Shown: positions 11,305 through 60,535, counted from the stretch's first letter. The stretch: DNA of 64,000 nucleotides from a virus (IMGVR_UViG_3300034159_000051:32001-96000); one strand, 5' to 3'. A program made the numbers and translations. Notes: generated by a model from the sequence alone, not told the origin.

Positions 11305-12811
11305 TAGGACGAACCATCGTCCGATATTTCTTCCACCCCCGCCTCCCTGCGGATCACGTTCCTGATTTTGAGACTTCCGGGGATGGTACTCAGCCAAAGT
11401 TCGGCCCGATGCATAACGCTCAGCAGGGCTTCGATCCGTTCCTCAAGCTCTATGATTTTGGCTTCACTCTCCGTCGGTTCGGTGAAAAATTGGGCGGAGC
11501 GCTCTGCATCTTCATCGACTGCGCTCATGGCTTTGCCTCGGCGGATTGACCATCGAATGTGAAATGGCCGGAATGACCCCACCCGGTACTGTTCCATTTC
11601 AGGCGTATTGATTTGGATGGATTGGCCGGATCGAGACAAAGACCGCCATCGACGCCAGGATTTTGCGCCATCAGGTTCGCAGCGGCCAAGCAAGCGTCCG
11701 CCGACGGGAACGGGATCGAATAAGAGAACGACACCGTCCCGATCTTGCCCGTCAACCGGATATCCGATTTGTAGAAGTGGAAGAGGCCCATAACGGGCGG
11801 GACGGTTTGGGCTTGCGCGCTGGCCGATCCCAGGACCGCGATCGCGGCTAAATACAAGATTCTCAAAGCCAAACCTCCACGATCATCCGATCGTCGTCGC
11901 TCCTACGGGGCTGCCAGAAAAGCTTGCGCGGGAGTTGGGCGCGCACGCTCTCAAGCGTCTTGCCTGCAATGAAATAATCGGTTTGCAGGATCTTCGGTTT
12001 TGTAAAGGACATGCGCGCGACGAACTCTTCCGGGTCGTCAGAGGTTCGGCAAACCGTCCATATCGGGCGCCGGTCCGCATTCTCGACATGGATGATTTCA
12101 AGCGGCGTCAGGGGCGCTTCGACCTTTTTCTCAGGCGTGATATACCGCTGCTTTTTCTTCCCGCCGCCGAACCTGAAATGATTGATCATGGCTTTTTTAC
12201 CTCGCCTTCTGACGCGGCAGCTTCCAGGGTTCCGCTCCACGTTTTGGCGCAGATATCTCCAAAAAACGCCATGTCGTTCACATCCCAGAATGCTCTTTTA
12301 ATGCGCTCTGTTGGCGTCATAGCCGCTAGAGCGCGAAGAGCGGCGCGCATCTTGTTTATCCATTCTGCGGCGGTATCCGGGTTCGCAGCCTTGAAATCTT
12401 CCCATGAAGTCCAGTCCAGCTCGAAAGCGGCTTTTGCCATTACTTCTGCCGGTATTAGTGTCTCGCTCATTGTCATGACATCGCGCTCCTGGGCGGAACG
12501 CGCTGGATCGTATTATCGAGCCCAGAGCTTTTTGCGTTGGCGATAGAGTTGATCACGGCTCTCATAAATCGGCCCAGCGTATTTCCAGCCGCGGCACCGT
12601 CAGGCTCCGACGCTGCGATCAAGGCGCCGGACGCAAGGGCTAAAGCCGCAAGGGCCTCATCCTGCGAGAAAAAGACCTCCTGCTCCTTTGAATCCCCAAT
12701 TGTCACAAGCTTAAAGATCCCGAGGGCGAGCTTATTGGCCCGTTCGTTTTTCTCATCGCAGGCGACTCTCTCGCTGCAGGCGTCGCACTTGATTTCGCAC
12801 ATATCTGCCAT
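11304..12811 (-). other. Five tightly packed small hypothetical CDS (11304-11528, 11525-11872 with signal peptide, 11863-12189, 12186-12476, 12473-12811)
   Basis: Overlapping stop/start codons on one strand; GGGGATCAGA motif at the 12811 start. Confidence 0.6.
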
Positions 12812-12825
12812 CTGATCCCCTTTCT

Positions 12826-13791
12826 TTAGTCCGCCACTATGGCGCTAAGAGCCGCGGCGACTTGTCCGCCGTGGTCTGCTCTATTGTCATCATACCGCAG
12901 AATCGTTTTTATATCCAAGTGTCTAGAGAACTTTCCAACCTTTCTGAAATCGCCGCCAAAAACATCGAGCGCCGCGGTGATGGCGCTATGGCGCAGGCCG
13001 TGCGGACGCGCAATGATGCCGATCTCCTCGCCAAGCTTCCGCACGATCTTATGGATGGCGGACCCGCTGAGTCTTGTATGCGTCGGAGGCGTCGAGAGGC
13101 TGATAAAGAGCGGAGCGTCCGCCGCATCGTCGCCGCGCAGGGCGAGCCACGCCGCCAGGGCGTCGCGTACAACCCCGGCCGGGAGCGTCAATGTCTCGCG
13201 CTCGCTTCGCCCCTTTCCCATTATCGAAAGCGTTCCGTTGAGGTCGACATGCCCGACATTGAGGCTGGCGATCTCCCCTCTCCGAAGCCCGAGGCCAAAA
13301 CCCAACAGCAGAATCGCGACGTCGCGCGCCGCCTTGTTCGGGTTCTTGTGCTCGCCAGCCGCCTTGATCATTTTTCGGACGTTGGCGACCCCAGGCCCCC
13401 GCGTATCGCGGTAGGCTTGCGTAGCCTCCCCCTTGATCTCCAGGCGCAGCTCTGTCGCCCCGAACCCGCGAGCGGCCGTCACGAATGAATTCAGCGCGAA
13501 CAGGCTGCGATTGATCGAGGATGGCGACAAGCCCTCCTTGAGTTTATTCTGCCTCCATGCAGCTACTACGGCGCGGGCTTGGCCATCATCAAGAGCAAGA
13601 AACCACCGGATCGCATCAGCAAGATCGCCAGCCTTTACAAAGGAAGCAAACGCCTTCAATTCATATTTGTAAGCGCGCTTCGTATTGTCCGAGGGGAACC
13701 CGGCCAGCCATAGGCCGAGCGCCGTTTCGGCGGTAATATCCTGGGTAAGCGTCAGGCTACGCCCTTGGCTTATCTCAATTAGATCGTTCAC
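12826..13791 (-). CDS. Tyrosine recombinase (XerC/D-like)
   Basis: RDVAIL..GLRRGEI, GKG, HGLRHS, RHLDIKTILRY: R-K-H-R-H-Y catalytic residues. Confidence 0.92.
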   Translation of the reverse strand: MNDLIEISQGRSLTLTQDITAETALGLWLAGFPSDNTKRAYKYELKAFASFVKAGDLADAIRWFLALDDGQARAVVAAWRQNKLKEGLSPSSINRSLFALNSFVTAARGFGATELRLEIKGEATQAYRDTRGPGVANVRKMIKAAGEHKNPNKAARDVAILLLGFGLGLRRGEIASLNVGHVDLNGTLSIMGKGRSERETLTLPAGVVRDALAAWLALRGDDAADAPLFISLSTPPTHTRLSGSAIHKIVRKLGEEIGIIARPHGLRHSAITAALDVFGGDFRKVGKFSRHLDIKTILRYDDNRADHGGQVAAALSAIVAD

Positions 13792-59741: not shown

Positions 59742-59762
59742 GCGCTAAAATTCGATTCGAAT

Positions 59763-60365
59763 TCACGTCGAAACCTTGGCGGACAAGGAAAGGACGTATT
59801 CATCGACCCATGCGATCGTCGTTGCGTTCGCCTGGGGCGTTTGGTTGTTGTAAAGGCTGGCGAGCCAGTCGTACCCATCTTTGGTTTCTGACGCGTCTTC
59901 CCTTTCGCACGCCGCAACCATGGCATCCTCGAATGTTTTATCGTTATATCCTCTCGGAATCCCGTAAAGCGTAAAGATCACGCTGGAACCGATCAGAGGA
60001 GCGATGAACCATGTATGAAATTTTTCAGAGGCAATCGCCTGCCGGAGCGCTCCCGGAAAATCTTCCGGCATCTGAGAAAGTAGCGCAAAGAACGATTTCT
60101 TGAGGTCGACGTCTGTTTCCTCGCCATTGATTCCTGATCCGCGCCAGTCAAGGTTGCTGGTTTTAAAGATGTGCCTGCATGGATTATCAATGTGCTGGTG
60201 GCATTTGCAGATAGAGCAATGGACGACGTCGCAATCGCAATCATCGCACAAGCTGTTATCCCGAAAGACCTCGCCCTCGTGTTGGCACCACGCGCAAGTG
60301 CCTTTCTTGTATTCTGAACTCTCGTCTACCTGCATCATCCCTTTATCGCCTGTGAATTCCATCAT
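59763..60365 (-). CDS. Cys/His-rich hypothetical protein
   Basis: AAGGGATCAG-ATG start; several CxxC pairs. Confidence 0.65.
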   Translation of the reverse strand: MMEFTGDKGMMQVDESSEYKKGTCAWCQHEGEVFRDNSLCDDCDCDVVHCSICKCHQHIDNPCRHIFKTSNLDWRGSGINGEETDVDLKKSFFALLSQMPEDFPGALRQAIASEKFHTWFIAPLIGSSVIFTLYGIPRGYNDKTFEDAMVAACEREDASETKDGYDWLASLYNNQTPQANATTIAWVDEYVLSLSAKVST

Positions 60366-60535
60366 CTGATCCCTTGATTTTCGTCGGTCGGAATGCTACC
60401 TGAAAAGCCATAGCCCGGACCTCGCTTGAGGAGCCGGGTTTTTTATTGTCCGCTCTATCTTGCTTGTGCTAGCACAATACGTTATTATACTAGCACAAGC
60501 AAGACGAGCGTTAAAAGCAAAAGAAAGGAGTCCTC

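Follow-up and report, generated by a model that had tools for sequence, protein, structure and literature searches.

A start-associated ten-base sequence of a temperate-looking peat phage as a probable ribosome-binding site and possible regulon tag

The phage genome and its dispersed ten-base word

The DNA analyzed here, IMGVR_UViG_3300034159_000051:32001-96000, is a 64,000-nucleotide (nt) stretch (hereafter the window) of a viral contig, and it carries, dispersed over both strands, a ten-base word, AGGGATCAGA, that stands a few nucleotides ahead of start codons. The source contig, of which the window represents bases 32001-96000, is 129,260 bp long, has overlapping ends and a G+C content of 57%, and its DNA was found in two peat-metagenome runs. 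Structural genes (terminase, portal, major head, sheath, tape-measure and baseplate) occupy the plus strand between ~124.6 kb and 43 kb of the genome, across the origin. Lysogeny-type genes (tyrosine integrase, CI-like S24/HTH repressor, Rha) are present together with genes of recombination and replication (ERF, YqaJ, a DnaD-like loader, primase/helicase, SSB), and FtsK-like, GapR-like, Ro60, RNA ligase and OmpA-type barrel genes complete the notable content of this temperate-looking, myovirus-type phage. Coordinates below are those of the window unless given as genome positions.

With up to one mismatch allowed, the window holds 42 matches to AGGGATCAGA, 24 of them exact, against a mean of 3.76 and a maximum of 10 in 100 dinucleotide-preserving shuffles, none of which reached 42. 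The whole genome contains 72 such sites, including 41 exact copies where base composition predicts 0.22, and the motif is the most over-represented 10-mer of the phage. Read in reverse, the pattern occurs in the genome in no exact copy and in three with one mismatch, and control words (reversed, complemented only, shuffled) gave 0-3 exact copies. The consensus can be written R-GGGATC-AGA, with an A-rich stretch 5' of it, and positions 2-5 are invariant among the 21 start-linked variants with a single mismatch.

An ATG, GTG or TTG that opens an open reading frame (ORF) of at least 35 codons lies -1 to 10 nt from 34 of the 42 window matches; ORFs and gene starts were taken throughout from our own crude ORF caller, and per-gene counts are approximate. 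Genome-wide, a start of this kind lies at -1 to 6 nt from 34 of the 41 exact copies, compared with 13.9% of 20,000 random positions (binomial p = 6e-23), the commonest gap being 2-3 nt. Every start-linked copy is co-oriented with its own gene; the exceptions are exact copies without a nearby start, one of which, in a divergent spacer, is of ambiguous orientation. The initial annotation had described the motif as start-associated and strand-specific, and had asked for distance-to-start statistics; the positional bias is clear, and the observation is thus confirmed. Each of the 28 positions at which it had placed the motif holds a match with at most one mismatch, within 2 nt of the position given, and to these we add 14 matches, at 1569, 38601 and 40824 on the plus strand and at 15110, 17533, 18127, 18402, 18720, 25218, 28465, 33278, 34081, 53577 and 57388 on the minus strand.

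The motif belongs to one class of genes. With at most one mismatch it precedes one of 45 late or structural-block genes and 46 of 137 others (Fisher p = 7e-6), in line with the earlier proposal that it is confined to non-structural genes. The accompanying remark that it was not seen in the structural block holds as near-absence only, since AGGGATTAGA at 1569-1578 (plus strand), the sole copy in that block and one mismatch from consensus, stands 8 nt before the ATG (position 1587) of a DUF2612 baseplate gene, possibly by chance. None of 38 motif genes overlaps its upstream neighbor, whereas 34 of 66 early genes without the motif do; the former initiate independently, and the overlapping genes are presumably translationally coupled. 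ATG is the start codon of 42 of 46 motif genes, as against 60 of 86 in the comparison set. The encoded proteins are unrelated, and most of the small or motif-bearing genes match no family in Pfam, NCBIfam or PHROGs scans. An origin of the motif by gene duplication was ruled out because there is a single paralogous pair among these genes, and a promoter reading because conservation is below 0.2 bit at each position from -30 to -6. Nor did we find support for the suggested link between the GATC in the motif and phage methylases: the genome contains 1040 GATC sites where a Markov model predicts 975, and the motif copies make up 72 of them.

The individual minus-strand sites illustrate how constant the arrangement is. 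The exact motif stands before an ATG by 1 nt at 14516-14525 (ORF of 138 amino acids, aa), by 2 nt at 14081-14090 (95 aa), by 3 nt at 15784-15793 (68 aa), 17029-17038 (79 aa), 23774-23783 (103 aa), 27459-27468 (131 aa), 31241-31250 (88 aa) and 31535-31544 (93 aa), by 4 nt at 35853-35862 (122 aa), 56218-56227 (an HD-domain protein gene, 181 aa) and 56481-56490 (77 aa), by 5 nt at 30956-30965 (427 aa) and by 6 nt at 25218-25227 (161 aa), and it overlaps the ATG at 24714-24723 (68 aa) and 60365-60374 (200 aa). Among the variants on this strand, GGGGATCAGA overlaps the ATG by 1 nt at 12811-12820 (112 aa), overlaps it also at 23051-23060 (67 aa), and lies 2 nt before an ATG at 14752-14761 (71 aa), 2 nt before a GTG at 15327-15336 (85 aa) and 3 nt before an ATG at 16327-16336 (80 aa). 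A gap of 2 nt to the ATG is also seen for AGGGATCAAA at 15110-15119 (100 aa) and 34081-34090 (130 aa) and for AGGGATCAGG at 33128-33137, ahead of the ERF-family recombinase gene (316 aa); AGGGATCGGA at 57388-57397 is 2 nt from a GTG (73 aa), and AGGGATCAGC at 38524-38533 is 3 nt from the ATG of a 133-aa Cys-rich protein (phrog_18493).

On the plus strand GGGGATCAGA abuts the ATG of the primase/helicase gene (42729-42738; 472 aa). Exact copies lie 1 nt before the ATG of a 116-aa ORF (44158-44167) and 3 nt before the TTG of the GapR-like protein gene (46442-46451; 232 aa), overlap the ATG of a 106-aa ORF (47662-47671) and abut that of a 264-aa ORF ahead of the Tas gene (49542-49551). At 47966-47975 the exact motif overlaps the ATG of an AAA ATPase gene (331 aa) and lies within the 3' end of the upstream ORF, its distance to the ATG still being kept.

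A smaller set of copies departs from this pattern. Between 17520 and 19000 on the minus strand, a module composed of a GC hairpin (GGCGC...GCGCC) followed by the motif is repeated before four or five small genes. The hairpin and CCTCCACCA lie ahead of AGGGACCAGA at 17533-17542, 3 nt before the ATG of an 87-aa ORF, and ahead of the exact motif at 18127-18136, 15 nt before an ATG with a separate GAGGA in between; a hairpin also precedes AGGGGTCAGA at 18402-18411, 14 nt before an ATG, and AGGGATCAGG at 18720-18729, 10 nt before the ATG of a 94-aa ORF, and at 18949-18958 the exact motif is 15 nt from the ATG of a 62-aa ORF. A CCUCC-containing stretch joins the hairpin ahead of the motif at three of these sites (17533, 18127 and 18402). 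Four of the module sites at 17.5-18.9 kb have a spacer of 10-15 nt after the motif, and two of these have a GAGG-type site of their own; in all, exact or near-exact copies followed by a separate GAGG/GGAG-type site lie 12-15 nt upstream of the start at 18127 and 18949 and at genome positions 101384 and 117885.

Three exact copies have no start nearby. One, at 33278-33287 (minus strand), lies 5 nt past a hairpin in a 213-nt stretch before a small hydrophobic ORF and the ERF gene. The second, at 38601-38610 on the plus strand, occupies a divergent intergenic region, where it follows a hairpin and T-run (38575-38590) and where the minus strand reads as an anti-motif, UCUGAUCCCU. The third, at genome position 118036, covers codons 7-10 of a ParB-like ORF. 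Downstream of motif copies we also noted two tiny hydrophobic ORFs with GAGG/AGGAGA sites of their own (33140-33232 and genome 117790-117872, both on the minus strand), one of which, read through, amounts to 27 aa.

Pairing with 16S rRNA and conservation beyond it

The only host clue that we used is the gene at 10528-11220, which closes the late block and encodes an OmpA-like outer-membrane barrel of the eight-strand type; it is moron-like, i.e. a phage-carried accessory gene. The nearest clusters to its protein come from Pseudomonadota, and its best genomic relatives (27-35% identity) belong to Rhodomicrobiaceae and other alphaproteobacterial metagenome-assembled genomes, from which we take the host, tentatively, to be probably an alphaproteobacterium. 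A protein-atlas look-up of the FtsK-like protein yielded no host clue. Five candidate host-lineage alphaproteobacterial genomes served as proxies, and all five carry the ordinary 16S rRNA tail, ...GGATCACCTCCTTTCT.

With this tail the motif pairs well. When aligned as a Shine-Dalgarno (SD) sequence, its AAGGG is spaced 8-9 nt from the start, which is the mode for the SD sites of genes without the motif. In an alternative register, predicted with RNAduplex, AGG and GAUC of the motif pair with GAUC(A)CCU of the tail at -8.3 kcal/mol, with one bulged A and a spacing of 11-12 nt; the corresponding energies for AAGGAG and GGAGG are -7.7 and -9.5 kcal/mol. Mean duplex energies are -8.4 kcal/mol for motif genes, -6.7 for late genes and -7.1 for other early genes. 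Since a GGAG, GAGG or AGGA lies just 5' of the motif in only two of 42 short-gap motif genes, the motif is the sole SD of this group. Elsewhere, at the minus-strand gene starts at 22581 and 54427, long canonical sites (GGAGTGATCA and GGTGGTGATCA) abut the ATG and complement the 16S tail through GAUCA, and sites of this type fit ribosomes with the ordinary long tail.

The label non-Shine-Dalgarno given in the initial annotation therefore does not hold: AAGGG sits at the SD spacing of other genes, and its pairing (-8.3 kcal/mol) is on par with that of the late GGAG-type sites. The motif is in part a Shine-Dalgarno sequence. We consider it very probable that the motif serves as the ribosome-binding site of these genes, a function that we infer from its sequence statistics. 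Its 5' (A)AGGG, at the aligned distance of the GGAG/AAGGA sites of other genes, would pair with the ordinary 16S 3' tail, or AGG and GAUC would pair around one bulged A, and because the tail is ordinary the normal ribosome of the host should be able to read the motif. According to the initial annotation, two findings together would speak against a phage-specific signal, namely a host 16S end complementary to the motif and equal use of the motif by host genes. The first was observed, because the five proxy genomes carry the ordinary tail; the second was not, as their 24 Mb contain 14 exact copies, one of which lies by an ATG, a density ~500 times below that of the phage.

Still, the motif is unlike an SD in several respects. 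The purine-rich G run at canonical spacing and a 16S pairing as strong as that of other genes are SD-like, but the motif is an exact, all-or-none 10-mer of one gene class, without graded degeneracy; its bases 8-10 lie beyond the free 16S tail and are kept nonetheless, and it is unused in the candidate host-lineage genomes. Upstream of 182 ORFs, the best match has no mismatch in 28 cases, one in 17, two in 4, three in 34 and four in 78. Conservation thus extends past what 16S pairing explains, with positions 5-10 kept and a bimodal distribution of matches (45 ORFs with 0-1 mismatch, 4 with two).

The exactness of the 10-mer, the copies without a nearby start and the copies placed before a separate SD suggest a second, sequence-specific reader. 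Our hypothesis is that the invariant remainder, AUCAGA, turns the ten bases into a common regulon tag through which one sequence-specific trans-acting factor would jointly switch the translation or mRNA fate of ~50 genes, for example in early shut-off or in silencing in the lysogen; on balance we judge this second role probable, if well short of secure. Taken together, we lean toward the view that AGGGATCAGA is a lineage-private start-associated sequence, the standard translation-initiation region of independently initiated non-structural (early/middle) genes, in which a ribosome-binding site would also carry a regulon tag.

The same data can be read without any dedicated reader. A good SD with its spacer might have spread by recombination or cassette gain and been kept since changes lower translation. 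The canonical 16S pairing at -8.3 kcal/mol and the canonical spacing fit this explanation, as do the presence of ERF and YqaJ-type recombination proteins, potential agents for the spread of short junctions, and the fact that no reader was recognized in Pfam, NCBIfam and PHROGs profile scans. However, SD sites normally decay gradually, whereas the motif is bimodal with four intermediates among 182 ORFs; positions 8-10 are kept although beyond any pairing with the free 16S tail; some exact copies lack a nearby start codon, and others lie 12-15 nt upstream, with a separate SD after them; and the late genes of the same phage do without the motif. We regard a plain ribosome-binding site as unlikely to be the whole explanation.

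Searches for relatives bear on how widely the motif is used. A near-DNA search of phage records found no relative, and protein-anchored scans returned mostly distant ones, two scans being without any. No exact motif was present in 80 metagenome loci around primase relatives (at most 52% identity; 689,492 bases) or in 14 viral loci around DUF5131 relatives (234,207 bases). One relative, G001 (82.9 kb; primase 48% identical), has a single copy of the 9-mer core, which is the chance level, and no comparable dispersed word was seen in it; its commonest 10-mers derive from a coding tandem array of the 6-nt units TGGCTA/TGGCTC (L252 11605-11975). A pattern scan of viral contigs for the motif found at least 117 stretches, of which 80 loci were listed, all single hits on different contigs. 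Absence of enrichment from the distant relatives examined (at most one copy, the chance level) and from the five candidate host-lineage genomes bears out the view that the signal is phage-specific, and by these comparisons of sequence the motif is private to the phage lineage.

One closer relative is available, a 4.1-kb contig whose portal and head-morphogenesis proteins are 74% and 65% identical (L166). There, an 88-aa ORF without homologue in the phage studied here has the exact motif 4 nt ahead of its ATG; by our calculation, an exact 10-mer would occur by chance on the two strands of 4.1 kb with a probability of ~0.008. This finding, like the unrelated small ORFs of the motif genes and the presence of ERF and YqaJ genes, would suit the idea, raised in the initial annotation, that the motif is a micro-homology kept as a junction for the shuffling of gene cassettes. 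The benefit would be of second order, though, and it would not explain why the distance to the ATG is fixed, why the motif follows the strand of the gene or why its 5' half is SD-like. Moreover, the contigs of the two metagenome runs are identical over 19.9 kb (12700-32600 compared), with no joint at any motif and so no breakpoints to compare. We find this explanation scarcely credible.

Several points weigh against the interpretation that we favor and call for caution. In thermodynamic terms the motif by itself suffices as an SD, and the data can thus be accommodated without a second reader; the uniformity of the copies could reflect recent spread and not selection. With a single closer relative contributing one copy, purifying selection at positions 5-10 can be no more than presumed. 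The starts of motif-class genes were picked with knowledge of the motif; the duplex energies were computed with an assumed 16S tail, later confirmed in the five alphaproteobacterial genomes; and, as these proxies were reached through the OmpA-like protein at 27-35% identity, the actual host may differ. Profile scans with Pfam (27 + 103 proteins), NCBIfam (109 ORFs) and PHROGs (27 + 13) gave no match to an S21, S1, CsrA, RegA/RegB or RelE-type protein, and a search of sequencing runs for the phage DNA listed two metagenome (DNA) runs and no RNA run.

Parallels in other phages and candidate readers

Start-associated sequences (SAS) were described for Cluster K mycobacteriophages in 2011. As set out in passages of Pope et al. 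(PMC3203893), the SAS is a 13-nt asymmetric word, GGGATAGGAGCCC, located 3-7 bp from starts that are ATG in 80 of 93 cases; it occurs in the right arm only, in one orientation and before varied gene families, some of its bases cannot pair with 16S rRNA, and it is absent from M. smegmatis. Papers of 2024-2025 still call its function unknown in the sections available (PMC11373665, PMC12699233). The analogy to the SAS drawn in the initial annotation fits feature by feature as far as the account in PMC3203893 goes. In both systems a short, asymmetric, exact word stands a few nucleotides before starts in one orientation and with a strong preference for ATG; it is limited to the non-structural half, combines an SD-like core with bases unpairable with 16S rRNA, precedes unrelated gene families and has rare copies unlinked to starts. 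The SAS is absent from its host, M. smegmatis; here the comparison concerns host proxies only, in which 1 of 14 exact copies lies next to an ATG.

The differences are equally clear. Our word has 10 nt and shares only GGGAT with the 13-nt GGGATAGGAGCCC; its SD-like part is AAGGG, whereas that of the SAS is AGGAG; inverted repeats of the ESAS type were not observed (<0.2 bit per position from -30 to -6); and it is 3-5 times more numerous (41 exact and 72 near-exact copies vs 11-19 per genome) in an unrelated phage with, probably, an alphaproteobacterial host. The resemblance is one of kind and not of common descent. The signal described here is genuine, tied to starts and SAS-like in kind, and it belongs to a new phage lineage; its copy number is the largest among the descriptions known to us. 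An unrelated phage, whose host is probably Gram-negative, seems to have arrived at the same design independently. The word splits cleanly into an SD-like and a non-SD half, so the question of its reader can be tested with simple reporter mutants. If one factor does read the tag, the phage would control about fifty genes post-transcriptionally with a single molecule.

A reader might also act on DNA. The motif copies could be repressor sites that, like the asymmetric 13-bp stoperators of Cluster A, block transcription of early operons in the prophage. Cluster A stoperators are dozens of asymmetric, one-orientation sites in short intergenic spaces of a temperate phage. The motif copies are likewise many, asymmetric and in one orientation to transcription, the phage has an integrase and a CI-like repressor, and copies lie in two divergent regulatory regions (38524/38601 and genome 117885/118036). 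Unlike stoperators, however, the motif is tied to the start codon, acts as an SD and is missing from the late operon. Its distance to the start remains tight (mode 2-3 nt) despite long spacers or a location within the upstream ORF, it takes the place of the SD, and genes that overlap an upstream neighbor lack it. S24/HTH repressors usually bind symmetric operators, and the sole recognized repressor here is of the S24/HTH type. Although Pope et al., in the portion of PMC3203893 consulted, do contrast the SAS with stoperators, we hold a DNA-level function to be very unlikely.

If the motif does combine a ribosome-binding site with a regulon tag, two kinds of reader can be proposed, both speculative; that a phage-specific reader exists is itself something we infer. 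The first is a phage protein of the T4 RegA/RegB type, which would act as a repressor or as a nuclease at early ribosome-binding sites, and which we put forward as a tentative possibility. A RegB/RelE-like nuclease gene could have gone unrecognized by the profile scans, and a fold-level relative could still be present. In the passages of PMC3014915 on T4, strong RegB sites (GGAGRAYARAA) lie in early translation-initiation regions, late messages are left uncut, and early genes are shut off collectively. Like the motif, in which GGA is also followed by U (GGAU), these sites form, by the same partial account, a long consensus that starts within early-gene SD sites; unlike ours, that of T4 is degenerate, and no RegB-like gene was recognized here. 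Within that account, RegB is the closest mechanistic precedent for a class-specific SD extension.

The second candidate is an antisense RNA. On the minus strand at 38548-38665 we predict a structured leader or small RNA of ~110-120 nt composed of a 5' hairpin, the anti-motif UCUGAUCCCU and a GC hairpin with U-run. Its anti-motif might pair with the motif at ~50 ribosome-binding sites, and in cis the RNA would sequester the site of the next gene. The copy at 38601 is the only exact one that can be read as an anti-motif, and it lies between a promoter-like site (TTGTAA-17-TATATT at 38700-38672, minus strand; 9/12 matches, with TG) and a GC hairpin with U-run. The minus strand folds far more stably than its shuffles (z = -4.05 and -3.47, none of 200 shuffles being as stable), while the plus strand does not (z = +0.31), and in a read-through transcript the anti-motif pairs with AAGGGAUCAG of the next gene. 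Fifteen of the 21 start-linked single-base variants are A-to-G or C-to-U changes, which would be tolerable as G-U pairs; nine of these 15, however, fall at edge position 1, and 6 of 11 remain if that position is left aside. The 38601 copy, when read on the plus strand, trails a hairpin and T-run, as do those at 33278 and 17.5-18.9 kb, so it may be an ordinary sense copy; the anti-motif is partly base-paired in the folds, and the flanks of the targets add no complementarity past ~12 nt. We therefore treat the predicted RNA as a lead only, and an antisense reader as an unlikely one. For the 133-aa protein whose gene adjoins the anti-motif, no sequence relative was found in PDB.

Antisense RNAs of this general kind are familiar from temperate phages: the c4 RNA of P1/P7 and the CI RNA of P4 are small RNAs from immunity-region leaders that pair with short boxes at ribosome-binding sites or leaders. 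Their targets number two to four boxes within a single operon, unlike the ~50 genome-wide targets envisaged here, and the RNA described above is only predicted.

A parallel within Cluster K speaks for the antisense candidate. Anaya has 16 sense copies of the SAS and one reversed copy, which falls within 385 nt devoid of genes that separate gp96 from gp97; this gap folds with z = -5.2 and is conserved in 182 K-phage records. The reversed copy forms the loop, CCUCCUAUCC, of a hairpin (record 59840-59912), and in K1 phages this loop complements the SAS almost perfectly; passages of Pope et al. 2011 (PMC3203893) mention one reversed site for K1 phages. The hairpin was present in seven of the nine K phages fetched, with compensatory changes at 7 of 19 pairs across the seven; Yuna and KiSi showed no such hairpin at the best-match position and were excluded from the alignment. 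In Unicorn (K6) the SAS is unchanged, with 12 exact copies, but the homologous loop is only partly complementary, matching in two 4-nt blocks, so loop and motif do not co-vary there. A literature search found no paper on the anti-motif RNA or on the K hairpin as an anti-SAS element; one match used the term antisense for other transcripts.

The anti-motif RNA and the anti-SAS loop of K1 phages are concrete candidates for a reader. It is conceivable, if rather improbable, that SAS in general are target boxes of one phage antisense RNA, in which case the ~115-nt RNA would switch ~50 genes here and the K1 anti-SAS hairpin would act likewise. If correct, this would answer the question of what reads SAS motifs.

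Other elements of the genome

Beside the motif genes the window contains a TIGR-Tas system (50343-53220). Its 288-aa protein (50343-51209) passes the NCBIfam model NF052498.1, 'TIGR-Tas system RNA-guided endonuclease' (E = 1.4e-30; 106.9 bits, cut-off 100). After the Tas gene follows an array of at least 21 stem-loop units of ~58-59 nt, each with an outer stem of 8-11 bp that shows compensatory variation, a 12-13-nt segment, an apical GCC-GAAA-GGC hairpin and an 11-12-nt segment; the linkers between units contain CUUU. The array matches stem-loop TIGR arrays as they appear in the published portions consulted (PMC12045711; preprint 10.64898/2026.09.09.750476). TIGR-Tas guides were ruled out as readers of the motif, the best overlap between spacer and motif being 7 nt among 42 spacers, and a two-spacer self-match of these spacers to the phage genome gave nothing convincing. 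A tRNA-Arg(TCT) gene lies within the array (52129-52205).

An RNA-repair-like gene set occupies 54420-59209 and genome positions 123785-124525. It includes a Ro60/TROVE protein with vWA domain (57569-59209, minus strand), an HD protein, an RlaP-family nucleotidyltransferase and an RNA ligase, and four tRNA genes (56542-56993) lie just downstream of the Ro60/TROVE gene. At gathering thresholds Rfam reported six tRNAs in the phage and nothing else, and no Y RNA was found at these scores. Outside the window, genome positions 118017-122604 hold ParB-like, DpdA/queuine-transferase-like, QueC, GTP cyclohydrolase and QueE genes, which together look like a 7-deazaguanine DNA-modification cluster.

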